Virus record (IMG/VR): IMGVR_UViG_651703099_000001 | Span: 1-64,000 of that record | Strand: one strand, 5' to 3' | DNA: 64,000 nucleotides | DNA from: a virus | Lineage: Duplodnaviria > Caudoviricetes | Shown here: positions 7,352 through 63,345 of the stretch, in pieces | Layout: each line of letters starts with the position of its first letter | Position numbering within the stretch: the stretch's first letter is position 1 | Program-made: the position numbers and the translations under genes | The notes under the pieces: generated by a model | What the model was told of the DNA's origin: nothing | What the model saw: only the letters and a program-made list of their open reading frames with translations | Databases searched by the model: none

Positions 7352-7416
7352 TTCGTACAGTATACTGGCCCAATAGCGTACCGATCGGCATCCTAGGGGG
7401 ATTCTAGGCGGTCGTC

Positions 7417-7821
7417 ATGGCTCTCGACACTTCTGGCAACTGGGTTGCAGGCGACGACCTGCGTGTTCTGGAGGCTCTGGGCCTTGGTTTCAGCGAGTAT
7501 ATGCTGAAAGGCCTGCAGACCTGCATGAATCAGCTAGAAGGCATCTCTCCTGAAGCGGTTTTAGCCGTCAGGGACGAGCTGACCCGTTATGAAACTGCTA
7601 AGGCAGCAAAAACGGCTGCGGATTTGGCCAATACTGAGTCCAAAACGCTGATCAAGGCCGACGTACTGGAGTGGGAGCCTGGTAAAAGCGGGGAATTGGT
7701 CGGTTTGGATGCTGAAATCGCCGACACGAAGCTCAAAATTGCTAATTACTTTGCGTTTTGCCCGTATACCGCTGGTGCTGGCGGTGGTGCGACTGGAATG
7801 ACGAGCCTGATCCGCTCTTGA
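7417..7821 (+). CDS. Putative head-tail adaptor
   Basis: Size, position before head-closure/tail-completion genes, LIKADVLEW. Confidence 0.5.
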   Translation: MALDTSGNWVAGDDLRVLEALGLGFSEYMLKGLQTCMNQLEGISPEAVLAVRDELTRYETAKAAKTAADLANTESKTLIKADVLEWEPGKSGELVGLDAEIADTKLKIANYFAFCPYTAGAGGGATGMTSLIRS

Positions 7822-7917
7822 TACGGTCCCGATCGGTAAGATTACGGCCATTTTACCATGGACGGCTCTGATTCGTTCCCGATCGGTATCCTGGGTGGAA
7901 TTACGACTGCCTTTTCC

Positions 7918-8103
7918 GTGAACCACCCCGAAGTTGATGGCCCCCTAGGGGAAGCGCTGGCAGAATTCTCCAAAATGGAACTCGTTGACGTGTGGTGCAC
8001 TGGCTGCGGCGCATTTCGTAAGATGAATGCAGCCTTCGCTAAGCACCTCCAGGGCGAAATTGGCTCCTGTGCTAAGTGTCGGGGTCTGAAGTTGAAGAGC
8101 TGA
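7918..8103 (+). CDS. Small Zn-ribbon protein
   Basis: CTGC...CAKC; GTG start inferred from promoter-like GGTATCCTGG at 7885. Confidence 0.55.
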   Translation: MNHPEVDGPLGEALAEFSKMELVDVWCTGCGAFRKMNAAFAKHLQGEIGSCAKCRGLKLKS

Positions 8104-8181
8104 GCGTCGAAGACGCGAAAAGCGGCCGGCGGAGCCGGAAGCTGGGGCGTGGCATCCTAAATAGACTAAAGGACTGCGCTC

Positions 8182-8685
8182 ATGGCTTCCCCATTGCTAA
8201 CGTATGCCAATTCAAGAGTCCTTGTAACTGCTGAAGGCACTGTTTCTAACGTTAATGGGCGTTTTGTAGCCGCAGCAGGGCAGAAGTATTTGGTCAAGTG
8301 CTTCATGAAGAGGGCTCAATATAGCGGGGTGTCCTCTGGGTCCAAGAAGATTCCCCTGGAAAGCCAGTTGGATGGTGCAATGCTGCCCGGTGCCTCGGGT
8401 GATTCGTTCTACTACAGGGGTTACGCCCTTGAGTATGCCCTGGTGGCCTCTAACTTTGAACTAGGCGACAGCGAATCCGCGTTAAGTTGGTTGCAGGTCG
8501 CCGGGCAGCTTGCTTTCTTGCCTGCAGGACGAGAGGTAGAGTTCGGCTTTGGAGACGAAAAGCCGCTTTACGGCAAGGTCGAAAGGTCTAGCGGCGTTTT
8601 TGGTGGGCAAGGCATCGATCAAATTCTCTACCGTGAAATTGGCGGAGTTGAGCTTCAAATTACTGGCGCGGAGCTGCAAGGGTGA
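8182..8685 (+). CDS. Putative head-closure / virion protein
   Basis: Beta-rich, 167 aa, within the head-tail block. Confidence 0.5.
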   Translation: MASPLLTYANSRVLVTAEGTVSNVNGRFVAAAGQKYLVKCFMKRAQYSGVSSGSKKIPLESQLDGAMLPGASGDSFYYRGYALEYALVASNFELGDSESALSWLQVAGQLAFLPAGREVEFGFGDEKPLYGKVERSSGVFGGQGIDQILYREIGGVELQITGAELQG

Positions 8686-9227
8686 ACCAACCAGGCGTAA
8701 AAATAAACAATGACCCAAGCCAAGCAATGGCGGCGAGGCTGAAGCAAGCTATTGCAGGGGTCAAAGAGCAATCAGTTACTGTTAGTAGCTCAGGTCTTTT
8801 GGGTCGTCTTGATATCAAATTTGTGCAGGGCGACACCAAAAATCTTTCAGCAGCATTCCGGGAGGGCACCGAATACGCGCTCTCCGTGGCCCAGGAGGCC
8901 CTCAGAGAGGCTTTGGATGCGGCCGTGGCCTCTTCTGTCTGGCAATGGAATGAAGGCGGCTCCAGGGACATTGTCGACACCGGAGCTTTGCGTAGCAGTC
9001 TTTCGGTCTCAATAAATGGCCAGGAGATTGCGATTGACTACGGCGTCCCGTATGCCGCGTTTGTGCATTACGGTGGATATGTGAAGCCGTATGGCAACGC
9101 CAAGATTGAGGCCGTTTACATTCCCGGCCGGCCATGGATTGATTCCGTCTTGTTTGGTACCGGGCCTGTTCCGGCGCTTAACCTGGATCAAATTATACTT
9201 GACGCAATCGATTCCAAGCTTAGGTAG
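8682..9227 (+). CDS. HK97 gp10-like tail completion protein
   Basis: RDIVDTGALRSS, YAAFVHYG, PGRPW. Confidence 0.8.
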   Translation: MNQPGVKINNDPSQAMAARLKQAIAGVKEQSVTVSSSGLLGRLDIKFVQGDTKNLSAAFREGTEYALSVAQEALREALDAAVASSVWQWNEGGSRDIVDTGALRSSLSVSINGQEIAIDYGVPYAAFVHYGGYVKPYGNAKIEAVYIPGRPWIDSVLFGTGPVPALNLDQIILDAIDSKLR

Positions 9228-9250
9228 ACTAGCTGGCTTTTAAGGCTGGT

Positions 9251-9796
9251 ATGAGCAAGCTTCCTTTTGTTGTAGAGCCTCGTCTGAAGCCAATCATTGA
9301 GATGGTTGGCAGCGACGAATCTGGCAAGATCGAGATTGAGCGTAAGGGGTTTCTCTCTACCGGAGAGAAGGCTTTTGTCTCAAACGGATCGGCGACCGAT
9401 CGAACTTCCGAGTTAATGCTTGCGCTTGTTCGCAGGGCTGCTGGCAGGTTCAAGATTGACAGCCAAGAGGCCTATGATATCATTGCTGGGCTAGTAACCG
9501 GCTCTTCTGATCATAAGCTATCAGACAAGATCAGGGAGCAGTATACGACTGAGCTTGGCGAAATTGCAATGTCTGCTGTTTCAGCCCAGCCTCGAATTGC
9601 ATTCATCAAAGCGTATTGTATGCTCCTCTACAGGGTCGACGCTTCAATTACGGCTGATGAGGCCATGAAGGTTCACCCCGACATTATGGAGGGGCTTGTA
9701 GCGCTTTACGACGACGAGGAGGCCAGGAGTGTTGAACGTCTTCTTGCCGATGTTCAGGAAGAAACCACCAATGTAGAGGATACCACAAAAAAGTAA
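9251..9796 (+). CDS. Tail assembly chaperone (gpG-like)
   Basis: Ends in slippery A AAA AAG immediately before TAA. Confidence 0.75.
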   Translation: MSKLPFVVEPRLKPIIEMVGSDESGKIEIERKGFLSTGEKAFVSNGSATDRTSELMLALVRRAAGRFKIDSQEAYDIIAGLVTGSSDHKLSDKIREQYTTELGEIAMSAVSAQPRIAFIKAYCMLLYRVDASITADEAMKVHPDIMEGLVALYDDEEARSVERLLADVQEETTNVEDTTKK

Positions 9797-10876: not shown

Positions 10877-10982
10877 CGACGGAGAGGCTGAGGCGTTCGA
10901 GGAGCGGGGCCATAAGCGTCTTGCGTTGTCACATACAGTTTACCGACAAAAGGAACCCTAGGACCGATAACTAGAGGGATCA

Positions 10983-11420: not shown

Positions 11421-11481
11421 TTGGAAATCTAAGAGATGAGAGGGACTACCTCTCGAATAGTCCCTTTCGCGAAAACTGACT

Positions 11482-12354: not shown

Positions 12355-12395
12355 TTACTGCAACCGCGATACTTGCAGGTCAAACAAGGTTTACG

Positions 12396-12418
12396 GGCCC
12401 CACAAGGGGCCTTTTTTA
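12396..12418 (+). terminator. Intrinsic terminator
   Basis: GGGCCCC-ACAA-GGGGCC followed by a T run. Confidence 0.8.
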
Positions 12419-12449
12419 TGGGAAGCCTATACGCGAATCTGGGCTGAGC

Positions 12450-15320: not shown

Positions 15321-15760
15321 TCAGCGACGCTATCGGTATGTTCTTCTTTGGCAATCCCGAAGACTCCGCGAGGATGTACTGGAACGAAGTCAAAGGGGTC
15401 ACTGGGCCGGCTTTGCCCGAGATCCCTTTAGACGAACAGACAGAGCAAGAGCTGAGGGTTTCGATAACCTATCAGCGTATGGCGATCAAAAAGGCTTGGC
15501 ACGATGGCGCCTCCGATGAAATCCTTGGCGTTTTACTAGAGGAGTACGACAACACCTTTGCTCATCTGGCGGCCGTCAGTGAGAGTTTCCGTGACGACGT
15601 GGAGAAAGGGCGTCACAGGGTGATCGGTGGCTACACCAGGGAGAATCTTGACAAATACAGGCGTCTAGCTGGCCTCGAGGTTATCTTTTACAAGCAAGAA
15701 ACTAAAGAGGACAAAAACGGCGCGACAATCCAGACTACCATTAGCCATTCGGCAAACTAA
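15317..15760 (+). CDS. Hypothetical protein
   Basis: ORF coupled to TMP stop. Confidence 0.55.
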   Translation: MISDAIGMFFFGNPEDSARMYWNEVKGVTGPALPEIPLDEQTEQELRVSITYQRMAIKKAWHDGASDEILGVLLEEYDNTFAHLAAVSESFRDDVEKGRHRVIGGYTRENLDKYRRLAGLEVIFYKQETKEDKNGATIQTTISHSAN

Positions 15761-18452: not shown

Positions 18453-18484
18453 TAGGAATCCTACGACGATTCTGATAACCTGAA

Positions 18485-20008: not shown

Positions 20009-20038
20009 GCTGGCATCCTATTCCAGCTAGGTGCTACC

Positions 20039-21541
20039 ATGGGCTGGTCGTTAAACAACTGGGGGTCGTCAAGGGTTGAGGCGGCTAGTGAGTTTTTAAG
20101 GACTGGTGTTGTTGGCACGTCTTTTGGCGGAACTGGCTGCTTTGGTAGCAATCAGTGCGCTGTTGGTTACGCCTGTATCGGTGGGCGTTGCGTAAAAACG
20201 GACGAAGCTGGCGGAGGAAGCGGCGGATCATACAGCGGCAGTAGCAATGGCGCTGGGGGCTACTATCCCGGTGGCAGTTGCGGCTCGGGAACAGACGGTG
20301 GTGTCTCTGGTGATGGCTCTATTGGTACGGGATCTTGCGCAAGTTCCTCTAGTAGCAGCGGCGGCCCTGTAGGATGCACTGTTCCTACATGTGGAGAGGG
20401 CAGCAACGGCTACGGTGGGTTTGACAGCGACTGTTGTGGTACAAGGTGCTGCAGGTATCAGGCCGGTGTTGGCGGGTACCCAACCGTCAACTGTTATTGT
20501 GGCGACTGTCCTGGACTAACTGGTGAACGGTGCTCGAGCGACACTGATTGCCTTTCGGGAGTGTGCATCAACGGCCGATGCGCTGATCCCAAGAAGTGTG
20601 TATCATTTTGCTACGAATACTACGAGGCAAATGGCAGCTTTGCCGCTGGCTGTAATAGTAACGACGTTTGCGACGAGTGTACGGAGTGTGGAGGCACCTC
20701 TGCTGGTGGCGACTACTGCACTCAGAAAGCCGACGCGCCGCCGTGCCATTGCGATCCAGATTCCGTTGGCGATTGTGATCTATGCGCGAACGACGGAAGT
20801 GTTATTCCTGGCGTATGCCTGGAGTGCGCTGAAGTCACAAACCAGCTCTGTACGTGTGGACTTGTAGCAAGCGCTAGGGTATGTGTCGAACAGGGGTCTA
20901 GCGGACTGTCTGTTGTCAATCTTGCTCAGGATGCGGCCAATCAGGCCTGCTTGGACGCATGCAGCGGCCCGACATCTCCCCCTGACAAATGCGCACCCTA
21001 TTGTGTCAGTAAAACGGTCTGCTCGGATGGTGGCTGTCCAGAAAACCCAGAAGATGGTGTTCCTGCGAATGAGGACGGTAAGGTAAACACTTGGAGTGGT
21101 TGCATTGAGGCGGATGGTCAAGCTTGCACTTTGTACTACGAGTGTGATTACTCCATGCTGCCAGACGAATGCAAGGCTTGCGACTGCAACTGTCACAACG
21201 ACTGCCCTTCCTGCCAGCTATGCGGGGCGGACGGAAAGTGCTATACAGACCCAGCTTGCGAGTTAAACTGCTGTAGCGAGGCAGATGTAGCAGCGGGCTA
21301 TATATGCTCGCCTTTTGCCGATTACGTTATCAAGAATACATCCAACGGCTCGACCATAATAAGCTATAGAACCAATGGCTCAATCAGCTTTGAACCAAAC
21401 TCAAATGGCTTTATGTATTATTCTTATACCAACACATGTGGTGTGTATCAGTCCGGGTCAACCGGCGTTGGCGTTGACATCTGGGACAATTACACCGTAG
21501 AAGAAGTGAGTCGTAACATTAGCTGTTTCAACTGCAGCTAG
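20039..21541 (+). CDS. Very cysteine-rich tail-region protein
   Basis: About 59 Cys in 500 aa by hand count; no signal peptide; own promoter motif. Confidence 0.8.
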   Translation: MGWSLNNWGSSRVEAASEFLRTGVVGTSFGGTGCFGSNQCAVGYACIGGRCVKTDEAGGGSGGSYSGSSNGAGGYYPGGSCGSGTDGGVSGDGSIGTGSCASSSSSSGGPVGCTVPTCGEGSNGYGGFDSDCCGTRCCRYQAGVGGYPTVNCYCGDCPGLTGERCSSDTDCLSGVCINGRCADPKKCVSFCYEYYEANGSFAAGCNSNDVCDECTECGGTSAGGDYCTQKADAPPCHCDPDSVGDCDLCANDGSVIPGVCLECAEVTNQLCTCGLVASARVCVEQGSSGLSVVNLAQDAANQACLDACSGPTSPPDKCAPYCVSKTVCSDGGCPENPEDGVPANEDGKVNTWSGCIEADGQACTLYYECDYSMLPDECKACDCNCHNDCPSCQLCGADGKCYTDPACELNCCSEADVAAGYICSPFADYVIKNTSNGSTIISYRTNGSISFEPNSNGFMYYSYTNTCGVYQSGSTGVGVDIWDNYTVEEVSRNISCFNCS

Positions 21542-21568
21542 GCAACCTAGTCTAGCTTCTGTGCAGCC

Positions 21569-28251: not shown

Positions 28252-28282
28252 TCGGCATACTAGCCCAGCGTTTTGATCCGTT

Positions 28283-28703: not shown

Positions 28704-29429
28704 ATGGCGCTTAAACCACCAGACATGGAAAGCTGCACCCCAAAGGTTGTTTGCCTAGGCGGTGTCAACAACGGAACGGCCTACGATCCATCAGATCCGT
28801 GTCCAGGCGGATTCAACTTTGATTCATCTGCCTGCGACTGCAAGACTGTTTTTCCTCAAACAGGCGGATACTGGAGATGGTCTGGTACGGTTACCTCCAC
28901 TACTCCGAACGGCGACTACGCCAGAGCTGTTATCGTTATTTCAGGCCCTACTGGCAATGAATCTATTGTTGGAGAAGGATACGGGTCTGCTCAGGCGACT
29001 GGCGTAACTCCCTGGAAATTTCTTCCAGTCAACACGGATCCAGAAACTGGAGAAAAGATTCATTATCTTCCAGCAATGCTGGGCCAAGATGCTCCTCCAA
29101 CTTTTGACACCGAACCAAACACTTGGTATGCCCTAAACGCCTCTGGCAGTTCTTACAAGCGAGGTAGTTGCAACGGCGGCTGGAGTACTGGTAGTCCCAG
29201 TGTGCGTCAAGTATCTGATGCTTATGACCCAAACTTTCCGCCACCACCGTTGGCGCTTGGTGCCTACAGCATGGGATTCTCGATTTCAGGAAGTGGGTCT
29301 ACTTGCTACGGCGCCCCGGTCGGATCCCTTACGACCTATAGCGGTGCCTGGCAGTACAGTCCCAACGCAAGCGAAAGCAACATTACCTATGAATACGACA
29401 GCGACCCCTACACCCCACAAAACCCATAG
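28704..29429 (+). CDS. Putative virion protein with Cys-rich N-terminus
   Basis: ATG 28704; C..VC...DPCPGGFNFDSSACDC then a beta-rich domain. Confidence 0.65.
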   Translation: MALKPPDMESCTPKVVCLGGVNNGTAYDPSDPCPGGFNFDSSACDCKTVFPQTGGYWRWSGTVTSTTPNGDYARAVIVISGPTGNESIVGEGYGSAQATGVTPWKFLPVNTDPETGEKIHYLPAMLGQDAPPTFDTEPNTWYALNASGSSYKRGSCNGGWSTGSPSVRQVSDAYDPNFPPPPLALGAYSMGFSISGSGSTCYGAPVGSLTTYSGAWQYSPNASESNITYEYDSDPYTPQNP

Positions 29430-29476
29430 GCATACTACTGGCGTTACTTTCAACGGGTGAGACGCCCGATCACTAA

Positions 29477-30822: not shown

Positions 30823-30963
30823 GTGAATAGGTATTATAGGTATAGATCACCCAGAAGGGAAGTTCCGAGATGGAATGGACTGGAGGGTGTCATGCCGACG
30901 CTTGCGCGAGGCTTGCGTAGGCAATTCACCCAATCTTTGTTCATCCATCCTTAGGTAATTATC

Positions 30964-32269: not shown

Positions 32270-32302
32270 TGGAAACCTATAGCTTTCTTATTGCTTAAGA
32301 TT

Positions 32303-32437: not shown

Positions 32438-32549
32438 AGAGATTTTCTGGTGAGGCCCCGTCCGTTGATTCGGCATAATAAGGTAGCTAGCCGCGCCACT
32501 ACTCTGCGGGGCGGGCTACCTCTCAACCTTAACATCTGGAGTTTTTTCA

Positions 32550-32918: not shown

Positions 32919-32950
32919 TCTAGCTCTCTGACAACTGAATAGGAAAGCTA

Positions 32951-32975
32951 AGGGGTCATTACGGCCCCTTTTTTT
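32951..32975 (+). terminator. Intrinsic terminator
   Basis: AGGGGTC-ATTAC-GGCCCCT followed by a T run. Confidence 0.7.
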
Positions 32976-33323: not shown

Positions 33324-33354
33324 GACTGACTAGGCTTTTAGGATAAGCTTAAGG

Positions 33355-33379
33355 AACCCTAGCTTGCTAGGGTTTTTTT
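33355..33379 (+). terminator. Intrinsic terminator overlapping a late-promoter motif
   Basis: AACCCTAG-CTTG-CTAGGGTT followed by a T run. Confidence 0.7.
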
Positions 33380-33382
33380 GTT

Positions 33383-33556: not shown

Positions 33557-33606
33557 CGTAAATTTGAGAAAAATTGCGGTACCCTAGTTGGTACGGATCA
33601 CCGATT

Positions 33607-34225: not shown

Positions 34226-34335
34226 TGCCTTTTAAGTCACCCGAACAGCGCAAGTACTTGTACGCCGCTAAGCCAGCAGTGGCGAAGAAGTTTGCCGCTC
34301 ACCAAAAAAGGAAACCTAAGAAAGGCAAAAAGTGA
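34225..34335 (+). CDS. Small basic protein (MPFKSPEQRKYLYAAKPAVAKKF...)
   Basis: Hand-translated; TAATG coupling. Confidence 0.65.
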   Translation: MPFKSPEQRKYLYAAKPAVAKKFAAHQKRKPKKGKK

Positions 34336-35473: not shown

Positions 35474-35665
35474 CTATACAAAAGGCCAGGATAGCTCAAC
35501 ATCCCCTTGCCAGGCATCGTCTGACAGGGGGATTGCTTTTGCGTAAGTGCTAAACACCTCGAACATGGTCTCCGTGGTCAGGCCACACTGCTTGGCTGCA
35601 TTTGGTACGTTGCTTTTACCGCGGAACAGCAGGTCACAGGCTTGTCTCGTCGTCAGCTTTGTCAT
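35474..35665 (-). CDS. Small HTH-like protein
   Basis: NVPNAAKQCGLT. Confidence 0.55.
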   Translation of the reverse strand: MTKLTTRQACDLLFRGKSNVPNAAKQCGLTTETMFEVFSTYAKAIPLSDDAWQGDVELSWPFV

Positions 35666-35945
35666 ACCAGGGCGCTTTAATCTCTAGCATACCACCAAGC
35701 AGTTCCTGGGCCTTACTGCCGTCAGGTTCGTGCTCGATGATGATGGGCTTTGGTTCATCCTTGGCCCATTGTTCTTGAATCTCTTCGACCTGGCGATCCA
35801 CGTCCTGCATGGTCGCGCCAGTCCTGTATTCGACCCAGAAGTCGAACCAGTAGTCATGTACCTTCTGGAGCCACGGGTTTTGGCGATAGTACCCGTAACC
35901 CCATAAGATGCGAATGATCTCTACAGCGAGACCGCGCCAGTTCAC
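35634..35945 (-). CDS. Hypothetical protein
   Basis: ORF in a minus-strand mini-operon. Confidence 0.6.
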   Translation of the reverse strand: MNWRGLAVEIIRILWGYGYYRQNPWLQKVHDYWFDFWVEYRTGATMQDVDRQVEEIQEQWAKDEPKPIIIEHEPDGSKAQELLGGMLEIKAPWYDKADDETSL

Positions 35946-36085: not shown

Positions 36086-36108
36086 GAGGCGAGCTATATT
36101 CGGCCATA

Positions 36109-36173
36109 GTTTGCCAATCGGCATCCTAGACCTGACGGCCCTGGTTTGCCAATCGGCATCCTAGACCTGACGG
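36109..36173 (+). repeat. 30-bp direct duplication containing the divergent late-promoter motifs
   Basis: GTTTGCCAATCGGCATCCTAGACCTGACGG at 36109 and 36144. Confidence 0.9.
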
Positions 36174-37566: not shown

Positions 37567-37606
37567 GGCTTTAGGCATACTATGAAAGATCATTCCCTGA
37601 GTTGCT

Positions 37607-38731: not shown

Positions 38732-38797
38732 TTTTCGCTAAAACGGAATACTACAGGGACCGTATATACGGACCTTTTTCATTGCTAGATAGCAGCC

Positions 38798-41494: not shown

Positions 41495-41523
41495 TCGGCA
41501 TCCTAGCGCACTGCTTGCGTGTT

Positions 41524-46932: not shown

Positions 46933-46969
46933 CCTGCTATACTGGGTGAGTACCTCTACGAGGAATCGT

Positions 46970-47740: not shown

Positions 47741-47770
47741 TTGACAGGCCCTCTTTTTTATTGGTATACT
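47741..47770 (+). promoter_or_regulatory. Sigma70-type promoter of the RpoD-like gene
   Basis: TTGACA-18 nt-TATACT with extended TG; SD GGAGG at 47792. Confidence 0.8.
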
Positions 47771-47803
47771 CGCAGAGTAATCAAACCTCATGGAGGTAAC
47801 GCA

Positions 47804-48589
47804 ATGACCGATCCCATCACCGCCTGGCTCAATAACGCTGCTCGCTACGAGCTTCTGACAGCAGAGCAGACCATTGAACTGGGCCGCAAGATTCAAGCCG
47901 CTGAGGAAGGCTCCCCTGAGCGCATCAAGCTGGTCAACAAGCTTTGTCAGCACAACCTGCGCCTGGTGGCCAAATTCACCCGCGCCTACATGAAGGGCGG
48001 CACCCGCAAGCTCACCTGGGGTGGCGACGAGACCATGGACCTCCTGCAAGAGGGCTACTTCGGCCTCCGTCGTGCCGCCAACAAGTTTGACCCCGAGCGC
48101 GGCTACACCTTTGCTACCTATGCCAACGCCTGGGTTCGCCAGGCCCTCGGCAAGTATCATGTTGACAAGCTGAGCCTGATCCGAGTTCCCGAGTCGTCGG
48201 CCCGTGAGATCTTCTACTACGACGCTCATGGCAAGCCCCGCAACAGCAAAACCTCAGCATGGGTAGCAGACGCAGCCCGCGCTGCTCGAGCCGCTTATGG
48301 CCTGGTGTCTTATGACAACAAACTGGCCGACGAGGAGCATTCGGTAATCGACCTGCTCTCTGACGAAAACCGCGTCCATGACGGTAAGTGTGAGATTTCT
48401 TATGATCGCTACGACCAGCTCATGGAGGATGTCGGCATTGACGAAGCTACCCGTCGGGTGATCATCTCATACTGCAAGCGCGGTAATCTCGACACTGCGA
48501 TGGCCAAGCACAAGGTCCCCCAGACCAGCAAGGCCCGCGCCCATATCCGCGGCGCTATTGCCCAGATCAAAGCCCACTGCGGCCAGTAA
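47804..48589 (+). CDS. RpoD-like sigma factor
   Basis: DPITAWL...LLTAEQ (1.2), NLRLV, DLLQEG..GL.RAA.KFDPERGYTFATYA..WVRQA (2). Confidence 0.92.
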   Translation: MTDPITAWLNNAARYELLTAEQTIELGRKIQAAEEGSPERIKLVNKLCQHNLRLVAKFTRAYMKGGTRKLTWGGDETMDLLQEGYFGLRRAANKFDPERGYTFATYANAWVRQALGKYHVDKLSLIRVPESSAREIFYYDAHGKPRNSKTSAWVADAARAARAAYGLVSYDNKLADEEHSVIDLLSDENRVHDGKCEISYDRYDQLMEDVGIDEATRRVIISYCKRGNLDTAMAKHKVPQTSKARAHIRGAIAQIKAHCGQ

Positions 48590-50376: not shown

Positions 50377-50596
50377 TCGAAGCAACAAGCGTGTTCGTCG
50401 GGAGCGCTACCAGCGCAACCTCGAGCGCGACATCCAGGACCATCAGGATCCGCCCTCTGGCGGCATGTACTGTGTGGTCGACAAGAAGACCAAGGAAAAG
50501 CACAAGGGCCTGAGCTTCAAGCAGGCTACGGCCCTGTGGAACACGCTGGAGAGTGCCATCATCCTCCAGGATGAGCATGTGAGGCGCAATGGGTAG
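50369..50596 (+). CDS. Hypothetical protein
   Basis: Coupled ORF. Confidence 0.55.
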   Translation: MTDRSNKRVRRERYQRNLERDIQDHQDPPSGGMYCVVDKKTKEKHKGLSFKQATALWNTLESAIILQDEHVRRNG

Positions 50597-50852
50597 GTTT
50601 CTGAAGGACGGTGAGTTTAAGCCCAAGCCTTCGACCCTGAAGGCCAGCGAGCGCATGCAGCAATCGCCAACCCCATTGCCAATCTTCCGCCGTAACACCA
50701 ACGTGGAGGTGTTTCTTGGCGCTGGCTGGGGCAAAGGCACCGTTGAGCATAGTGATAAGGTTCGTTGCGTGGTCTTCCTCAAGATTGGCCAACGGCGAGT
50801 AACCTGTTATGATGCTCGTAATATCCGCGAGTACACCCCGAACAAAAAATGA
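50589..50852 (+). CDS. Hypothetical SH3/Tudor-like small protein
   Basis: VEVF..GWGKGTV...VVF pattern. Confidence 0.55.
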   Translation: MGRFLKDGEFKPKPSTLKASERMQQSPTPLPIFRRNTNVEVFLGAGWGKGTVEHSDKVRCVVFLKIGQRRVTCYDARNIREYTPNKK

Positions 50853-52102: not shown

Positions 52103-52474
52103 GTGATCAGCCTGACCATTCACATGGTCCTGTTCTCGAAGGCTCGCCCCAGGGTCACCTCGAGGGGGACCTTCATGCCAAAGGACTACCAGGACAAGCG
52201 CAAGGAAATGTTGCGCCAGATCAAGGAGCAGTACCAGGGCGAGCCGCTCGAGGGGCCCATCCGCTTGGAGTTGGACGTTTACGGCGAGGGCAGGGCCGAT
52301 GCCGACAACATCATCGGCGCCTTCATGGACACTGCCAACAAGGTGCTCTGGGTGGACGATCGCGTGTCGATCATTCCCGAGATCCAGGTGCGCTGGAAGA
52401 AGGCCGCCAGGGGCTCCTCTCGCTGGGAAGTTCGGATCTACCCACTAAACTGTGAGCAGGAACCGCTGTTCTAA
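52103..52474 (+). CDS. rusA: RusA-like Holliday junction resolvase
   Basis: KARPR, DADNIIGAFMD, VDD. Confidence 0.8.
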   Translation: MISLTIHMVLFSKARPRVTSRGTFMPKDYQDKRKEMLRQIKEQYQGEPLEGPIRLELDVYGEGRADADNIIGAFMDTANKVLWVDDRVSIIPEIQVRWKKAARGSSRWEVRIYPLNCEQEPLF

Positions 52475-54180: not shown

Positions 54181-54482
54181 TGGCTGACATTCTTAAGATC
54201 GAACACATCGTCGACGGCAGTTACAGTCTCGACGAGAACTTTCCTGGGTACAAATTCACCTTGAAGACTGAGGTTGATGATTTCTCGGTTACCGACTGGT
54301 TTAAGTTATTCGAGAAAGTGCTACTGTCTGCTGGCTTTAGTGAGTACGTCGTGATGAAGGGCTGCATGGAGCTGGCATTCAACTCGTGGCGAACCACGGA
54401 GAACATGCGGAAGCTCTATGCCGAATACGCCGACGAGCTGGAGGGATTCAAGCCCGCTGGTAAACTACCAGACGAGGAGTGA
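54180..54482 (+). CDS. Hypothetical protein
   Basis: Coupled ORF. Confidence 0.55.
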   Translation: MADILKIEHIVDGSYSLDENFPGYKFTLKTEVDDFSVTDWFKLFEKVLLSAGFSEYVVMKGCMELAFNSWRTTENMRKLYAEYADELEGFKPAGKLPDEE

Positions 54483-55117
54483 TTCCAGTCATGTCAGGCG
54501 ATCCCAGCAGTTGGAAAGAGGCGGAGCCGCCCTACAATCCAGGGCCGATCTACAACTTTCGCAGGGGGTATCGGGTTCGCGAAGCTGGTCGTCACGAGAC
54601 CGACAAGGAGTACCGCGCCTTCCAGACCTACATGAATTTGGGGTCTGGGAGGTCTTATGCTGCGGTGGCAGAGATCGTTGAGCTGACAGAGGCCACCATC
54701 CAGAGCTATGCCGAGCGCTACGAATGGCAGCGCCGTGCCGCTAAGTGGGACCAGAAGCAGCTCACGGCCGCATTCAAGGACGCCAACAAGGTTGAGCGCA
54801 CCCGCCACCGTCAGAGCATCGAAAAGTTCCGCCAGAGCCAGCAGGAGCAGGCTGAGAAGTTCGTTGCCGTGAGCAATGACCTGATGGCGGTGATCCAGAA
54901 GCGCATTGAGAAGGCCGACGCCGAAGGGGAGGAGATCCCGATGGCACTGGTGTCGGGCTTGATGCGGGCCGCGGCCAACATCTCCGAGCAGGGCCGCCAG
55001 GCTTGGGCCACATCCCTGGGCGTCAACGAGCTGATGCAAGTTGTTGACCAGGAGCTGGAGCAGGTTAGCGTCGAGGACGTGACCGACGATACCTACGACA
55101 TTCCCCTCGACGAATAA
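54479..55117 (+). CDS. Putative terminase small subunit
   Basis: HTH-like then W..RA..WD; directly before TerL. Confidence 0.7.
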   Translation: MIPVMSGDPSSWKEAEPPYNPGPIYNFRRGYRVREAGRHETDKEYRAFQTYMNLGSGRSYAAVAEIVELTEATIQSYAERYEWQRRAAKWDQKQLTAAFKDANKVERTRHRQSIEKFRQSQQEQAEKFVAVSNDLMAVIQKRIEKADAEGEEIPMALVSGLMRAAANISEQGRQAWATSLGVNELMQVVDQELEQVSVEDVTDDTYDIPLDE

Positions 55118-55118: not shown

Positions 55119-56642
55119 ATGGCCCAGAAACTCGGAAAAGACTACCTCCAGAAGGCCGCTTCTGGACAGGATCTGGTCAAGGCCGTCAAGGCCAAGAAGG
55201 CTGAGCGCCAACAGAACGGCAACAAGGTCGTCTTGTGGAAGTTCATCCGTCAGGTGTTCCCTAACTACAAATTCTACAAATTCCATGCAACAGTCATCGA
55301 GCAGCTTCAGCGAGTCCTCGACGGAGAATGCAATCGACTCATACTTCAAGTCCCGCCTCGACACGGAAAGAGTCTATTGGCTTCGCAGCTCCTTCCTGCT
55401 GCTTATCTACTTGCTCATCCCGAGCGTTTTGTGGGTATTAGCTCCTACTCCGCAGAACTCTCTGAAGGATTCTCCCGCAAGGCCCGCGACTACTATCGTG
55501 AGGCAGGCGGCCTCCTGAATCCCTCCTCTCAGGCCGTAAATGCCTGGGGAACAGAGGGTGGCGGTGGCCTGTGGGCTGCTGGTGTTGGTGGTGCCATCAC
55601 TGGTCGTTCTGGTCACCTGCTGATCATCGACGACCCCGTGAAGAACCGCGAGGATGCCGAGAGCCCTCGTATGATGCAAAAGCTCAACGACTGGTACACC
55701 TCAACCCTGTACACACGTCTTGAGCCCCACGTGGGCGCCATTGTCGTGATTCAGACTCGGTGGTCTGAGAATGACATGATCGGGCAACTGCTCGAAAACG
55801 AAATGAACGTCTCGGAGAAGGGCCGTGAAAACTGGACTATCGTGGATCTCCCAGCTCTTTACGAGGACGAGGGTGATCGACCGATCCTGCCGCCACACTG
55901 CGAAACGGTCGCTGACTGGCGTACCGAAGTGGGCGAAGCGCTTTGTCCCCAGCGTTACGACGTGGACGATCTGGAACGAATCCGTGAAGCTGTCGGTTCG
56001 CGAGACTTCGCCTCTCTATACCAGCAAAGGCCCGCCCCCGAGGGTGGCAACATGTTTAATCCTGAATGGTGGCAGTATTACAACCACGATAGCATTATGC
56101 CGAATTTCCAGCGTGTCATGCTGGCGGTTGACGCTACCTTTACAGCTACCAAAAAAAGCGACTATGTCGTTGGGATTGTCGTTGGGCAAGCGGGGAGTCA
56201 GTTTTACGTGCTCGACCTCGTTAGAGAAAAGTTGGACGTGGTCGGTACAATGGCTATGATCGCCCGCATGTACAAACGCCATGCTCTCTCTGGTACTGTT
56301 ATTGAGTTGGCTGCTTCTGGCTATGCTGTCTACCAAATGATGAGCCAGAAGGTGCCTGGGCTGATTGGCTACAAGCCAGACAAGTCAAAGGAGGCCCGCG
56401 CCTCAGGTATTGTACCGATGGTCGAAGCAGGCAATATATACCTGCCCGCTAGCGCACCCTGGCTGGACGCCTTCATTAACGAGTTCTCGCTGTTCCCTGC
56501 GTCGAAAAACGATGACATGGTGGACGCCCTGACGATGGCCGTCAACTACATGGCCCAGCGTACCGCTCCTCAGCTCACAACCGTGACCTGGGGCCGCGGC
56601 GACAAGGCGCTCCCGGAGGTGCCGCAGTACCGAGCTTGGTAA
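55119..56642 (+). CDS. terL: Terminase large subunit
   Basis: PPRHGKS, LLIIDDP, YQQRP, DDMVDA. Confidence 0.95.
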   Translation: MAQKLGKDYLQKAASGQDLVKAVKAKKAERQQNGNKVVLWKFIRQVFPNYKFYKFHATVIEQLQRVLDGECNRLILQVPPRHGKSLLASQLLPAAYLLAHPERFVGISSYSAELSEGFSRKARDYYREAGGLLNPSSQAVNAWGTEGGGGLWAAGVGGAITGRSGHLLIIDDPVKNREDAESPRMMQKLNDWYTSTLYTRLEPHVGAIVVIQTRWSENDMIGQLLENEMNVSEKGRENWTIVDLPALYEDEGDRPILPPHCETVADWRTEVGEALCPQRYDVDDLERIREAVGSRDFASLYQQRPAPEGGNMFNPEWWQYYNHDSIMPNFQRVMLAVDATFTATKKSDYVVGIVVGQAGSQFYVLDLVREKLDVVGTMAMIARMYKRHALSGTVIELAASGYAVYQMMSQKVPGLIGYKPDKSKEARASGIVPMVEAGNIYLPASAPWLDAFINEFSLFPASKNDDMVDALTMAVNYMAQRTAPQLTTVTWGRGDKALPEVPQYRAW

Positions 56643-56650
56643 ACTATTGA

Positions 56651-56765
56651 GTTCCCGCTCTGCCTAGCATCGGGCCCGGTTCAGGAGGCGTCCGTTAACG
56701 TCTCCCCGATAGAGGCCAAGCCTCTGTGCGTCTCCGAGGCGTCTCACGCTTGGTCCATCCTTACT
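56651..56765 (+). ncRNA. Candidate structured non-coding RNA
   Basis: No ORF; GGTAAACTAT motif at 56638; four consecutive hairpins. Confidence 0.5.
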
Positions 56766-56831
56766 CGCTTCGCTAATAAACGCCCGTTATTAACCCGCCT
56801 GGTAGACTGGGTATCAGTTGTTCAGCCAGGT

Positions 56832-57567
56832 ATGGCACGGAAACCCGCCAAGTTCCAGCTCAATACGGAGCAGCAGAAGCTGGCTGCCGACAACCTGAAC
56901 CTGGCTAGGCGGGAAGCGTGGCGTATACAGCGCTCAACTGGTATCGACTACCACACCCTGGAGTCGGTCGCCTTTGAAGGGCTGTGTAAGGCTGCCTACA
57001 GGTACGATGCCAGCAGGCCGCACCCCGTCACCGGCAAGAGCATGAAGTTCTCTTCGCTGGCCATTCCCACTATTCGTGGCGAGCTGCTGCACTGGGTGCG
57101 CGACAGAACGTACTCGATGCGCCTTAGCCACAAGATGCGCGAGCGCTGGGTCAAGGGCCGCAAGCTCCTGTATCGCGGCTCTACCGACATCGAGATCGCT
57201 GCCAGCCTGGGCATCCTTCTCGAGGAGTGGCAGGAAGTGCGTAAGGTATGCTCTGGCCCACCGCTGGAACTGAAGGACCAGGCCACCCCTACGGAGCCCC
57301 TGGAGCCCTCTGAGGTGGACTTCGCCTCGATATACCTGGAACAGGCTAGTAACGCCATGAATGAGCTGCGGGGCGATCTACAGGACTACCTGGGTCAGAT
57401 CGAGCTCTACCTCAACGGCAATGGCAGTCGCGTCCCCCAAGGCCGCTGTTGATGCGCTCCTCTCTACCGCTGGCTGCGCTACCACCGACTGGAGTCAAAT
57501 GGATGTAAACTTACTTGACGGCTGGGAGGACGTTGGCGACGGTCGCCTGCAAGGTTCCCTCTTCTGA
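56832..57567 (+). CDS. SigF/SigB-like sigma factor (regions 2-3, no recognisable region 4; apparent +1 frameshift at 57434-57438)
   Basis: NLNLAR..A...LESVAFEGLCKAAYRYD...KFSSLAIPTIRGELLHWVRD; extra C in GTCCCCCAAG. Confidence 0.85.
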
Positions 57568-57583
57568 CTGATATACTGGAAGC

Positions 57584-61954: not shown

Positions 61955-61959
61955 CCCTT

Positions 61960-62217
61960 ATGGCTAAAGTATTCAAGGATCCCGAAGCCACCAAGCTTTG
62001 CGACGACATCCGATGGCTCTACAATGTCAATCCCAGGGGAGGCTGGGTAGCAAGACCACGCCACGGAGCCAAGCAAATTGTTGTTGGGCATCCTGATTAT
62101 TGTAACGACCTGGACATTTCAACCCAGGTCGACGCCCTGATCTCGTCCATCAACCACCTGGGACTGGCCGAGGCTATCGGCTACACCGTCGTCAACCTCG
62201 CCTACGACCCTTCATGA
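61960..62217 (+). CDS. Hypothetical protein
   Basis: ORF from ATG 61960. Confidence 0.55.
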   Translation: MAKVFKDPEATKLCDDIRWLYNVNPRGGWVARPRHGAKQIVVGHPDYCNDLDISTQVDALISSINHLGLAEAIGYTVVNLAYDPS

Positions 62218-62450
62218 CCCACCTTTACATCTACCTGTTCCTGGGGGCCCTGGTGGTCCTCTTCCCGAAGGATGCTCTGCTGCTTCCTCATTGGGTCGAG
62301 GCCCAGGTTAAACTTCATTACATCAACGCCAAGATGTTCTGGTGCGCCTGGACCATGCACCGTAAACTAAAGAAGGACTTCGGCGCCCAAGGGTGGCCAG
62401 TCCCGCCTTTCAAGTTCATCCCCATCTGGGACCGCGAGGAATTCAAATGA
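62214..62450 (+). CDS. Small membrane protein
   Basis: N-terminal TM. Confidence 0.55.
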   Translation: MTHLYIYLFLGALVVLFPKDALLLPHWVEAQVKLHYINAKMFWCAWTMHRKLKKDFGAQGWPVPPFKFIPIWDREEFK

Positions 62451-62599
62451 GCTACAACGCCATCCGCAAAAACGGCAAGTCCTACGCCCGCGACGGCCAC
62501 ACCCTTGGAGATTTCGCCAAGCGCACCTCCATCGGCAACGGTAAGCGCAAGCGGGGCTCCTTTAACGGCAAGAAGAAGTATCGCGGTCAGGGCCGTTAA
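62447..62599 (+). CDS. Small basic cyanophage-type protein
   Basis: KRTSIGNG...KKYRGQGR. Confidence 0.65.
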   Translation: MSYNAIRKNGKSYARDGHTLGDFAKRTSIGNGKRKRGSFNGKKKYRGQGR

Positions 62600-62764
62600 T
62601 GCTTCCCACTTTTTCTAACCTTTACCGCCTGAACCTCATGGCTTGTAATAAACCAGACCACCTGCGCTGCCCCAAGTGCAAAAAGCAGGAGGAAGACCAA
62701 TCCACTGAGGCCTTCCGTAAGGCCAACGAAGAAAACCCATCTCGTCTCGAGGCCCGTATCTACG

Positions 62765-62956
62765 ATGTTTAAGTTTCTTTTTGGCCGTACACGTGGCCGC
62801 CAACTGTATCGGGTGCTCTACGTCTTGAAAGGTAGTGACTTTTTCCTGACCGCTGTCGTGGCCGCAACTAGCGAATACGAGGCTCAGAGGGAGTTTGACC
62901 GCCTGTATCCTACGGACTACGTCCGCATTCCTTACAGCACAAAGTTAGTTTCATGA
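62765..62956 (+). CDS. Hypothetical protein
   Basis: ORF; pattern similar to 61799. Confidence 0.5.
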   Translation: MFKFLFGRTRGRQLYRVLYVLKGSDFFLTAVVAATSEYEAQREFDRLYPTDYVRIPYSTKLVS

Positions 62957-63258
62957 TCCCAGTAGTAGGGCCAGTGGTGCAAAACCCTTCCATCCGTCAT
63001 CCCGCGGTGGACATAGCCTGCATCCCAGGTTCCGAAGTTCGTGCTATGGCCAATGGTCATGGCACTTTTCACTGGGACCATGACATGGGCTGGGTGTTCA
63101 CTCAGGGCAACATCTCGATCAGCCACCTTGATCACAAGGGAGTCGATCGGTTCTATACTGTTGGCGAGGTCATCTCAGCCTGCGGATCCACGGGTCGCCT
63201 GTCGGCTGGGCCGCACGTCCACATCGAAGGGCCACCTGAAGTCCTATCACGTTTCTAA
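62953..63258 (+). CDS. M23-like peptidase
   Basis: HPAVD, HL, GSTG..AGPHVH. Confidence 0.8.
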   Translation: MIPVVGPVVQNPSIRHPAVDIACIPGSEVRAMANGHGTFHWDHDMGWVFTQGNISISHLDHKGVDRFYTVGEVISACGSTGRLSAGPHVHIEGPPEVLSRF

Positions 63259-63267
63259 ATGTTTCAC

Positions 63268-63290
63268 AGGGGGCCACGAGCCCCCTTTTT
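63268..63290 (+). terminator. Intrinsic terminator
   Basis: AGGGGGC-CACGA-GCCCCCT followed by a T run. Confidence 0.75.
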
Positions 63291-63345
63291 GCTGCTATAC
63301 TGGTAGAGCCGAAAGGCATCCTAACCCTGCGTCCTTAAACCAGAT

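Follow-up and report, generated by a model that had tools for sequence, protein, structure and literature searches.

The window analyzed here, 64,000 nt of a 72,332-bp genome from a virus of the Caudoviricetes (IMGVR_UViG_651703099_000001), carries a region of structural genes, many of them headed by a short motif that we call the late box, followed downstream by two sigma-like genes. The features are given by position, and distances run from the first nucleotide of each box to the start codon.

7374-7382, minus: late box GGTACGCTA, 31 nt to the start at 7351
7387-7395, plus: late box GGCATCCTA, 30 nt to ATG 7417; arranged back to back with its minus-strand neighbor (7374-7382)
8151-8159, plus: late box, 31 nt to ATG 8182
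9223-9231, plus: late box, 28 nt to ATG 9251
10952-10960, plus: late box, 31 nt to GTG 10983
11423-11431, plus: late box, 59 nt to ATG 11482, major tail protein (synteny with S-CRES3 gp83)
12421-12429, plus: late box, 29 nt to ATG 12450, tape measure; directly after a strong terminator (12395-12412)
15751-15759, plus: late box, 28 nt to ATG 15779
18455-18463, plus: late box, 30 nt to ATG 18485
20012-20020, plus: late box, 27 nt to ATG 20039
21541-21549, plus: late box, 28 nt to GTG 21569; overlaps the previous stop codon
22981-22989, plus: late box, 28 nt to GTG 23009; overlaps the previous stop codon
25096-25104, plus: late box, 31 nt to ATG 25127
28254-28262, plus: late box, 29 nt to ATG 28283
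29429-29437, plus: late box, 48 nt to ATG 29477, scaffold (synteny with S-CRES3 gp99)
32271-32279, plus: late box, 32 nt to ATG 32303
32942-32950, plus: late box, 34 nt to ATG 32976; terminator-like hairpin (32950-32970) between box and start
33353-33361, plus: late box, 30 nt to ATG 33383; the box forms one hairpin arm, with a T-run after the hairpin
33578-33586, plus: late box, 29 nt to ATG 33607
34310-34318, plus: late box, 59 nt to ATG 34369
35685-35693, minus: late box GGTATGCTA, 28 nt to the start at 35665; absent from the original prediction
36107-36115, minus: late box GGCAAACTA, 30 nt to ATG 36085
36101-36170, plus: two tandem 35-nt copies, each with GGCATCCTA (36120 and 36155), 58 and 23 nt to GTG 36178, fibritin-like fiber gene
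37574-37582, plus: late box, 33 nt to ATG 37607
38745-38753, plus: late box, 53 nt to ATG 38798
41497-41505, plus: late box, 27 nt to ATG 41524, lysozyme/peptidase
47741-48589, plus: second sigma-like gene, 282 aa; RpoD-type regions 1.2 and 2 only; adjoins ssb, as P-SS2 ORF113 does
52103-52474, plus: RusA resolvase, ends QEPLF; apart from the sigma, no other called protein of the genome ends Q-x-x-L-F
54459-54467, plus: box GGTAAACTA, 32 nt to ATG 54491, terS (start by alignment with S-CRES3); heads terS-terL-sigma; also fits TGnTAnACT
56800-56810, plus: TGGTAGACTGG, 32 nt to the sigma start; sigma-70-like extended -10 class, outside the late class
56832-57567, plus: group-3 SigF-like sigma gene; the ORF as written stops at 57452 (206 aa), with the family C terminus in the next frame
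63315-63323, plus: late box, 31 nt to ATG 63346, ribonucleotide reductase (synteny); a terminator and an TGCTATACTGG site at 63293 lie upstream

All 18 plus-strand and both minus-strand pairs of motif and start codon named in the original prediction were found. The motif, GGNANNCTA, has 40 matches in the window, 36 on the plus strand and 4 on the minus strand, against a mean of 24.76 (sd 4.75, largest 36) in 100 dinucleotide shuffles, none of which reaches 40. The positional signal is much stronger than this excess in number, with 22 of 43 matches in the whole genome beginning 27 to 34 nt upstream of a called start codon, where random placement puts a mean of 0.26 and at most 3 (5,000 trials). 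Five starts (28283, 32303, 33607, 36085, and 41524) were fixed to those of the original prediction, and that of terS (54491) was placed by homology in a later step; when all starts come from automatic longest-ORF calls, 17 sites remain at 27 to 34 nt. Unbiased k-mer enrichment in the 50 nt upstream of starts also returned pieces of the motif as its top words (CATCCT, 15 against 1.95 expected, with ATCCTA, ATACTA, and AAACTA), in keeping with the enrichment that had been predicted.

That the motif precedes almost every structural gene is an overstatement. Among 47 called genes between 7.1 and 42.95 kb, 21 have it at 26 to 37 nt, 6 more only at 38 to 70 nt, and 1 only at 13 nt, leaving 19 without a copy within 70 nt, 9 of which overlap or abut the preceding gene. 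Longer leaders had been proposed for high-copy genes; they measure 59 nt at the tube gene and 48 nt at the scaffold gene. Upstream of the capsid gene and the gene at 32550, the exact motif is absent and the nearest one-mismatch variants lie at 134 and 78 nt, respectively. The lack of an exact box at the capsid gene is a point against the boxes being late promoters. Shine-Dalgarno sequences are mostly missing at box-headed genes.

Depletion of the late-box word inside genes on both strands points to a signal in DNA. In 638 long ORFs, the word occurs 59 times on the sense strand, against 130.1 in synonymous-codon shuffles, and 10 times on the antisense strand, against 47.5, a stronger depletion and the lowest antisense ratio among 18 related words. 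When the A of the box is shifted or swapped, the depletion is gone (ratios of 0.76 to 1.15); as a point against, the related words GGNANNATA and CCNANNCTA are about equally depleted on the sense strand. In its anatomy, the box is an extended -10 element, with G-G at -14/-13, an invariant A at -11, and T at -7, and the -35 position, which had been described as unconserved, holds no information in 21 sites or in 73 + 14 sites from four genomes. Enrichment of a pyrimidine followed by purines is seen around the expected start, at box positions +12 to +14. Also counting against a promoter, the boxes at 32942 and 33353 are embedded in terminator-like hairpins, and the latter could serve as terminator, promoter, or both. 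The arrangement of box, hairpin, and start at 32942 is shared by S-CRES3. Overall, the sequence evidence indirectly supports a motif that behaves as a strand-specific DNA signal with extended -10 anatomy.

The motif recurs, similarly placed, in related phages. S-CRES3 has 32 plus-strand and 5 minus-strand copies and S-CRES1 has 30 and 5, mostly 28 to 33 nt upstream of ORFs, and in P-SS2, with 19 and 3, 14 of the 19 lie 29 to 37 nt before annotated starts. The motif is conserved in relatives while its flanks have diverged. Across 60 IMG/VR loci of uncultured relatives that encode the sigma, 251 copies share the strand of the sigma and 18 lie opposite, with 61 and 0, respectively, at 26 to 35 nt before ORF starts. 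Forty permuted control words average 6.8 in these loci, the highest value being 25; the related loci in such conservation counts are not independent of one another. A single phage served as negative control, the cyanophage Mwe-JY26, which is missing from the sigma tblastn hits and has 7 motif copies in 40.9 kb of structural genes, none of them within 80 nt of its 46 annotated starts. As predicted, motif and sigma co-occur, a group-3 sigma having been found in every box-carrying relative (S-CRES1, S-CRES3, P-SS2, and the 60 IMG/VR loci). This co-occurrence fits the phage group-3 sigma, a host SigF/SigJ-type sigma, or the second sigma-like protein of the phage alike.

The gene at 56832 had been called SigF-like, and it does encode a group-3 sigma, matching NF005644 (cyanobacterial SigF; E of 2.7e-20, profile positions 30 to 199 of 258) at a score well under the curated cutoff (73 versus 261 bits), with Pfam region 2 below its gathering score (18.2 versus 24). 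An AF2 model (pLDDT 81) matches sigma domains 2 and 3 (Z up to 12.9; rmsd of 1.9 over 77 residues). The view that the protein consists of regions 2 and 3 only does not hold, as the 206-aa ORF is cut by one extra C in the run at 57434-57438; the family C terminus is readable in the next frame, ending QGSLF with a stop codon at 57565-57567. The protein of the family is 244 aa long; among the 119 other listed homologues, 117 measure 240 to 263 aa and the remaining two 228 and 233. As written, the protein would be without the third C-terminal helix and the tail, and either the sequence contains a homopolymer error or the sigma is impaired in this genome. The family's conserved three-helix C-terminal domain finds its best fold matches among sigma-4 domains, though weak ones (Z at most 5.6), Pfam region 4 was not detected in the sigma, and no basic recognition helix was seen, weakly suggesting that region 4 persists as a degenerate sigma-4-like remnant.

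Positive autoregulation had been proposed through GGTAGACTGG, which is present at 56801. The element is TGGTAGACTGG, one of six TGnTAnACTG sites heading replication genes, and its version in relatives reads TGGTAGAATG or TGGTAAAATG, a sigma-70-type extended -10, placing it outside the late class. Feedback is possible via the late box upstream of terS (54459 to 54491), which heads terS-terL-sigma. The second sigma-like gene, at 47741-48589, was overlooked in the original prediction. Mostly monocistronic mRNAs had also been envisaged; the plus strand of the late region holds few strong terminators (about six) and most boxes are in contact with the stop codon of the preceding gene, which argues for nested read-through transcripts, and we infer that most transcripts cannot be monocistronic. 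The earlier interpretation is thus supported in part: the strand-specific extended -10-like signal, the SigF-like sigma, and their co-occurrence stand, whereas the sigma regions, the monocistronic mRNAs, and the autoregulation site do not.

The motif had been likened to the -10 element of Bacillus SigF/SigG/SigB-type promoters; the cyanobacterial J-Box, GGGaAtacT, fits better than that consensus. The passages of the Nostoc punctiforme SigJ study that concern the J-Box describe an extended -10 with a weak -35 and a transcription start 10 bp from the center of aAtacT (PMC6495340). Its core, G-G-a-A-t-a-c-T, equals the phage G-G-M-A-W-M-C-T; both place G residues before an A....T -10 element, have a weak or absent -35, and are read by a SigF/SigJ-like group-3 sigma, putatively so in the phage. 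The phage box differs in lacking the first G of the trio, in adding an invariant A after the T, and in being virus borne, with its own much diverged sigma and a start predicted from sequence. The GGTAA -12 region of the Synechocystis PCC 6803 SigF promoter PpilA1-54 partly matches the phage box, and Synechocystis SigF is a group-3 cyanobacterial sigma, the best family match of the phage sigma being the cyanobacterial SigF model. SigF promoters depend on a TAGGC -32 region together with an AG-rich stretch (PMC2532724), whereas the phage boxes are without upstream information. The Prochlorococcus siphovirus P-SS2 encodes a homologous "group 3 sigma factor," ORF003 (47% identity), also after terL, and, like this phage, a second, group-2-type sigma adjoining ssb; a regulon was proposed, and the promoters reported in main-text passages are only BPROM-predicted ones of the sigma-70 type (PMC2784084).

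We consider it probable that GG(C/A/T)A(T/A)(C/A)CTA is the core of the late promoter of cyanosiphoviruses of the S-CRES/P-SS2 type and that it is most likely read by the phage's own group-3 sigma, SigF/SigJ-like and encoded at 56832, on host core RNA polymerase. The promoter would be a single extended -10-type box with no -35 box, in the register G-G at -14/-13, A at -11, and C-T-A at -8/-7/-6, and transcription would start 6 to 7 nt downstream of the T, giving leaders of about 13 to 19 nt. Decay of sigma region 4 to a small three-helix remnant with no recognizable DNA-reading helix would fit the missing -35. With the sigma gene headed by its own sigma-70-like extended -10 site of the replication-gene class, a cascade would run from replication-class promoters to the sigma to the late boxes, the late box before terS possibly reinforcing the sigma and the boxes topping up expression gene by gene through nested read-through transcripts.

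The boxes could be promoters read by another sigma, either a host group-3 sigma of the SigF/SigJ type or the phage RpoD-like protein (47741-48589). The J-Box, as its report describes it, is a host-type element occurring in many cyanobacteria, the phage encodes that second sigma-like gene, and its group-3 sigma gene is frameshifted in this genome. We nevertheless regard this as rather unlikely, as group-3 sigmas were present, according to a passage of the P-SS2 report, in only two Prochlorococcus genomes sequenced by then, MIT9313 (the original P-SS2 host) and MIT9303 (PMC2784084), the TGnTAnACTG class is a better fit for the second sigma, whose region 2 is of the RpoD type, and every box-carrying relative has the group-3 sigma.

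Quite improbable is a box that binds or loads some other phage factor onto DNA or a paused complex, with a few upstream promoters driving transcription; candidates would be a late activator or a NusG/Spt5-like antiterminator loading at an ops-like site. Ops sites are short non-template-strand words, and the element here is asymmetric, strand specific, and located in leaders, with a small "SPT5" protein and a "Rob" regulator annotated in S-CRES records. However, the window's "SPT5" counterpart (50589-50852) has no Pfam or PHROG family match, one loading site per operon would be enough, yet more than 25 are present, and the antisense depletion and the A(-11)/T(-7) pattern are consistent with a -10 element. 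The depletion speaks also against a word that works at the RNA level, either for processing or as a translation signal, since it is not expected of an RNA signal. The near-constant distance to the start codon, the scarcity of Shine-Dalgarno sequences, and the RNase III annotated in S-CRES records would suit such a role, but the boxes share no structure (mean MFE z of -0.24 at 18 sites), no Rfam family matched, and 27 to 34 nt is too distant for a Shine-Dalgarno element, making this very improbable indeed.

Phage sigmas that send host RNA polymerase to middle or late promoters with one dominant element include gp36 of phiEco32 and gp28 and gp34 of SPO1, whose lineages, hosts, and motifs are unrelated to those of the present phage. 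Late transcription in T4 (gp55, gp33, and the gp45 clamp), as outlined in passages of PMC2988020, likewise combines a -10-only promoter with a sigma-family protein that does not read a -35, and both systems have a conserved hydrophobic/acidic C-terminal peptide of a kind shared with replication proteins. Whereas gp55 is sigma-2-like only and needs both gp33, a separate sigma-4 mimic, and the phage clamp, this phage has a single sigma that combines regions 2 and 3 with a putative sigma-4 remnant, no phage clamp was found, and the sigma tail fits the bacterial beta-clamp consensus.

This tail is a new point here. Every one of the 119 close sigma homologues finishes in Q-x-x-L-F, which is the beta-clamp-binding consensus, and so do the RusA relatives of the phage; the P-SS2 sigma differs, having 214 aa and no such tail. 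From its sequence, the sigma tail looks as if it could grip the host DNA sliding clamp. In phage Mu, as reported in PMC12867686, MuC engages the host DnaN clamp via clamp-binding motifs and drives phage late transcription. MuC is an activator working with sigma-70 rather than a sigma factor, and clamp binding has been shown for MuC and is predicted for the phage sigma; the partnership of MuC with the host beta clamp provides a precedent for a clamp-binding role of the sigma tail (PMC12867686).

The window covers 64 kb from the start of a 72,332-bp virus record rated complete, and it comes from a long-tailed cyanophage akin to the Synechococcus phages S-CRES1, S-CRES2, and S-CRES3, with 81-84% DNA identity in the capsid region and 84-92% identity in the capsid protein. 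The Prochlorococcus phage P-SS2 is a more remote relative, at 50% identity in the capsid and 47% in the sigma factor encoded at 56832. Structural, fiber, and lysis genes occupy 7-43 kb, nearly all on the plus strand, and profile matches and synteny place replication and nucleotide genes, terS, terL, and the sigma gene at 43-64 kb. The left end, 1-6000, has genes on both strands and a G+C content of 0.40-0.44, compared to 0.49-0.60 elsewhere; it may be a separately acquired module, and its genes include the two listed below.

Genes of the left-end region
1190-2323: repair exonuclease
2566-3426, minus strand: DNA methyltransferase

Ahead of the late genes lies a box, GG(C/A/T)A(T/A)(C/A)CTA, counted here as GGNANNCTA, and all 20 motif/start pairs listed in the original prediction are present in the sequence. 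The window holds 40 copies, 36 on the plus strand and 4 on the minus strand, compared to 24.8 +/- 4.8 in shuffled windows, none of which reached 40 in 100 shuffles. The real signal of the box is position. Across the whole genome, 22 of 43 copies start 27-34 nt ahead of a called start when five gene starts are set as in the original prediction, against 0.26 for random placement, with a maximum of 3 in 5,000 trials; with purely automatic longest-ORF calls, 17 sites are still at this distance. Enrichment upstream of starts, which the original prediction had offered as a check, is apparent as well, with pieces of the motif being the top words in the 50 nt before starts even when counted blind to the motif (CATCCT, 15 versus 1.95). 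Boxes with one mismatch are weakly enriched at 26-36 nt (8 versus about 4 expected, from 474 genomic sites). That the box precedes almost every structural gene proved too strong a statement, as it is found at 26-37 nt in 21 of 47 late-region genes, at 38-70 nt alone in six, and at 13 nt alone in one. The remaining 19 have no box within 70 nt, and 9 of these overlap or abut the preceding gene. Two further boxes stand beyond the late region.

Boxes beyond the late region
54459: box 32 nt ahead of the terS ATG at 54491
Ahead of the ribonucleotide reductase gene: box at a distance of 31 nt

Several sites have an unusual arrangement. A 35-nt tandem duplication at 36101-36170 carries two box copies ahead of the fiber gene at 36178, and divergent pairs of minus- and plus-strand boxes stand back to back, 4 nt apart, at 7374-7395 and 36107-36128, with the pattern TAGnnTnCC-rATC-GGCATCCTA (regions 7369-7400 and 36101-36170). 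At 32942-32975 and 33353-33382, boxes are joined to terminator-like hairpins and T-runs right before start codons, an arrangement kept in S-CRES3; were transcription to begin within the hairpin, new transcripts would get past a terminator at which upstream ones halt. No exact box precedes the capsid gene (30964) or the gene at 32550, and the variants GGTATTATA (30830-30838) and GGCATAATA (32472-32480) sit 134 and 78 nt upstream of them, respectively, after terminators. The most expressed genes may thus use a hybrid, more TATAAT-like box with long leaders. A late-type box at 56638 overlaps the terL stop and has no start codon behind it.

The box resembles the cyanobacterial J-Box of SigJ-type promoters. 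Both have a G-rich extended -10 immediately before an aAtacT-type -10, and the weak or absent -35 of the J-Box has its counterpart in the phages, where, as the original prediction had observed, no conserved -35 box is seen: no column upstream is informative in 21 aligned sites of this genome, 73 of three S-CRES-type genomes, or 14 of P-SS2. The three free positions prefer C/A, T/A, and C/A, like the J-Box, the letters G-G, A, C, T, and A being invariant by construction because sites were selected on them. The phage box differs in that the first G is missing (that G of the J-Box trio occurs in 1 of 21 phage sites) and one A is added. In promoter register, the G-G pair occupies -14/-13, with the invariant A and T at -11 and -7, respectively; the J-Box authors interpret the Gs as contacting region 3 and the conserved A and T as the bases that sigma region 2 flips out (PMC6495340). 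The mapped J-Box transcription start is 10 bp from the center of aAtacT (PMC6495340). In the phage, box positions +12 to +14, where the start would fall, are enriched for a pyrimidine and then two purines, and such a start would leave leaders of ~13-19 nt. The GGTAA "-12 region" described for Synechocystis SigF is a partial match to the box, whereas the TAGGC -32 region described there has no phage counterpart (PMC2532724).

The distribution of the box within genes argues that it is a DNA signal and not an RNA signal. In 638 long ORFs pooled from the genomes compared here and set against synonymous-codon shuffles, the box is depleted in both the sense (59 versus 130.1) and the antisense (10 versus 47.5) orientation. 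The antisense ratio, 0.21, is the lowest among 18 related words, and the depletion is gone when the A of the box is moved one place or replaced (ratios 0.76-1.15). Avoidance on the strand that does not become mRNA is predicted for a promoter and not for an RNA signal. As the neighbor words GGNANNATA and CCNANNCTA are also depleted, the core A-n-n-(C/A)-T-A may be the element avoided. No RNA structure common to the sites was found at the 18 tested (mean z -0.24), and the window contains no Rfam family.

Comparison to other phages shows that the box is shared across the family and goes with the sigma. There are 32 plus- and 5 minus-strand copies in S-CRES3 and 30 and 5 in S-CRES1, most of them 28-33 nt ahead of ORFs, and across the S-CRES comparison the box is retained though spacers differ, as ahead of the tape-measure gene. 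In P-SS2 the counts are 19 and 3; of the 19 plus-strand copies, 14 stand 29-37 nt before annotated starts, and the consensus is GGAAnSCTA. A set of 60 IMG/VR loci (890 kb) fetched via the sigma protein carries 251 copies on the strand of the sigma gene and 18 on the opposite strand, with 61 and 0, respectively, at 26-35 nt before ORF starts, although these loci are mutually related and the counts are not independent events; forty permuted control words gave a mean of 6.8 and a maximum of 25. The co-occurrence of motif and sigma, a further check set by the original prediction, is seen in S-CRES1, S-CRES3, P-SS2, and the 60 loci. In a single control, the cyanophage Mwe-JY26, which has a related capsid and is absent from the sigma matches, there are 7 copies in 40.9 kb of structural genes and none within 80 nt of 46 annotated starts.

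The gene at 56832 does encode a SigF-like sigma, as predicted. Its product matches NF005644, the model for cyanobacterial SigF (E 2.7e-20, spanning positions 30-199 of a 258-position profile), as well as further models of the SigB/F/G and FliA kinds (TIGR02980, E 1e-10), with scores far under their cutoffs. At 73.1 bits (71 bits in the genome search) against a cutoff of 261, it is a distant relative of the NF005644 family and not an equivalog. Searched against genome contigs, the sigma found one locus, in a bin labeled Proteobacteria. The protein has the region 2 of group 3 sigmas (SigB/SigF/FliA type), responsible for core binding and -10 recognition, with Pfam Sigma70_r2 scoring 18.2 bits, under its cutoff of 24. 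An AF2 model made from a 97%-identical homologue of 244 aa (pLDDT 81) comprises sigma domains 2 and 3, a linker, and three further helices, and aligns with whole sigma factors over residues 8-216. It fits sigma domain 2 with Z 12.9 and an rmsd of 1.9 over 77 residues. Region 3 is present in that model residues 100-141 align with sigma domain 3 of 8ftd_L and 8dy9_F, chains of this type giving Z 11.7-11.9 and an rmsd of ~3 over 122-123 residues; Pfam Sigma70_r3 was not detected in the phage sigma.

The original prediction held that this sigma consists of regions 2 and 3 only. Both regions stand, but "only" is not supported: the 206 aa of the window ORF reflect a frameshift, and the family protein has a C-terminal three-helix domain weakly resembling sigma C-terminal domains. 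Among the other homologues listed, 117 of 119 are 240-263 aa long and the remaining two 228 and 233 aa. An extra C in the C-run at 57434-57438 shifts the frame, and the conserved 41-residue C terminus continues in the neighboring frame to 57567, leaving the third C-terminal helix of the window copy out of frame; the extra base may be a homopolymer error or else a genuine mutation or defect. The C-terminal 90 residues are conserved across homologues. Pfam r4 and r4_2 are absent from the 244-aa family protein, and the C-terminal domain alone (folded, pLDDT 81) had no Foldseek match at E <= 0.001. When 48,161 chains were searched, sigma factors aligned at their own C-terminal domain made up 10 of the 12 top matches, with a Z of just 3.7-5.6, and a greedy profile alignment to true cyanobacterial SigF passes region 4.1 and loses confidence at the expected recognition helix. 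In our reading, region 4 is vestigial rather than absent and shows no sign of DNA reading, which agrees with the missing -35.

How the late genes are transcribed, and what controls the sigma gene, differ from the original prediction. Convincing plus-strand terminators in the late region are few (~12395, 30801, 31887, 32950, 34680, and 42924), and most boxes touch or overlap the preceding stop codon, so that transcripts are expected to be nested, with read-through, and the proposed mostly monocistronic mRNAs are not supported. Positive autoregulation had been proposed on the basis of the element at the sigma gene, with GGTAGACTGG as an autoregulatory late box. We rejected this assignment, since the element is TGGTAGACTGG, one of six sites of a separate class.

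Sites of the TGnTAnACTG(G) class
30220, 46935, 49375, 56800, 57569 (ahead of the primase gene), and 63293: ahead of replication-type genes and the sigma gene

Relatives have TGGTAGAATG, TGGTAAAATG, GGTATAATG, and similar words at the same position. In most of them the element overlaps the Trp-stop end of terL, and where a spacer of 189-369 nt separates terL from the sigma gene (the window and IMG/VR loci L007, L012, L013, L033, and L034) it stays with the sigma gene. The non-coding spacer in the window is 189 nt (56643-56831), compared to ~25 nt in S-CRES1 and S-CRES3 and 200-369 nt in some relatives. By its sequence, the element is a predicted sigma-70-type extended -10, which makes a cascade more likely than autoregulation through this element, while read-through from the late box ahead of terS could still feed back on the sigma. 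Together, these data are probably best explained by a one-box late promoter that is read by the phage group 3 sigma and operates inside a cascade.

A candidate reader of the TGnTAnACTG class is a second sigma-like protein (47741-48589, 282 aa), in which RpoD-type regions 1.2 and 2 are the sole ones detectable and the C-terminal 130 residues have no match. Its gene adjoins ssb, as does P-SS2 ORF113, a "group 2" sigma. At two sites of the class the -10 hexamer lies almost against the start codon, stopping 6 nt short of the primase ATG (57584) and 2 nt short of the called GTG at 46946, which suggests that mRNAs from these two sites are leaderless or nearly so. Beyond the window, at ~71400-71640 of the whole genome record, TAGAATACACACATC-like words occur ~35 nt before two adjoining small genes (71426 and 71633), each word having a Shine-Dalgarno-like AGGAG after it, and may be a third, early promoter type.

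The C terminus of the sigma raises a further possibility. All 119 close homologues end in Q-x-x-L-F after an acidic stretch, with Q, L, and F invariant and the middle two residues varying, and P0131, a homologue at 48% identity whose C-terminal domain is different, has the same end; in the window sigma the motif is out of frame. The beta-clamp-binding consensus is described as Q-L-x-L-F and often C-terminal (PMC4549789). The close homologues have Q1, L4, and F5 of a clamp client at their extreme C terminus, with G, A, or P at position 2 and not the consensus L. Q-x-x-L-F closes 50 of the 5,528 frames in the 60 loci, namely, 44 sigmas, 5 RusA-like proteins, and one DnaG-type primase (L027:1897-3567, ending QQALF). 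The only other called protein of this genome with such an end is the RusA resolvase (52103-52474; QEPLF). Of 120 RusA homologues, 19 end in Q..LF and 46 in Q..L.F; others stop right past the catalytic core, which fits an appended docking peptide. Naturally short sigmas (203-214 aa; P-SS2 and IMG/VR loci L051-L063) still accompany the box and keep the third helix; these P-SS2-type sigmas are without the tail.

Precedents exist in unrelated phages. Both the T4 late sigma, gp55, and the partner protein gp33 bear the clamp-binding tail of the polymerase, and the clamp activates -10-only late promoters (PMC2988020); the Mu activator MuC engages the host clamp via clamp-binding motifs (PMC12867686). 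As in T4, the predicted late promoter here is a -10-type element alone. Unlike T4, with its split sigma (gp55, a sigma-2 core, plus gp33) and its phage clamp, the phage here combines regions 2 and 3 with a sigma-4-like remnant in one protein, and we found no DnaN-type clamp in the genome at E values up to 0.1 and no polymerase among the scanned proteins. We tentatively propose, as an idea somewhat more apt to fail than to hold, that the sigma might dock on host DnaN via the Q-x-x-L-F end of its acidic tail, switching on or boosting late transcription from one-box promoters. The tail would sit at the place of the -35-reading helix of region 4, and host DnaN clamps left on replicating phage DNA would trigger or boost transcription. 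The logic of T4 gp55/gp33/gp45 and of Mu MuC would then be contained in one sigma, in a siphovirus without its own clamp, and RusA and one relative's primase, bearing the same peptide, would join it in a small set of clamp clients.

The kind of system described here is already known: T4 uses a phage sigma at one-box late promoters, and the box itself is of the cyanobacterial J-Box type. The phages phiEco32 and SPO1 also have sigmas with one-box late promoters. The P-SS2 paper named the group 3 sigma and proposed a regulon, and the promoters reported in its main text are of the sigma-70 type, predicted by BPROM (PMC2784084). We found no description of the box in a literature search on S-CRES phages, cyanophage group 3 sigmas and late promoters, and estuarine Synechococcus siphoviruses, a search that did not extend to the S-CRES isolate paper. 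New here are the depletion test, the true length of the sigma and the frameshift that hides it, its apparently vestigial region 4, the second promoter class ahead of the sigma gene, and the clamp-type tail.

These results provide a concrete predicted late regulon, with one sigma, a clear cascade, and some 25-30 promoters predicted in each genome, for widespread cyanobacterial siphoviruses that include the cultured S-CRES phages, P-SS2, and many uncultured ones. The regulon links the viral program to the J-Box/SigF promoter type of the hosts and would make late genes in metagenomic contigs recognizable from DNA alone. If the tail is a real clamp-binding tail, this would be the first sigma factor to dock on a host sliding clamp, and replication-coupled late transcription, known from T4 and Mu, would have a third, unrelated design.
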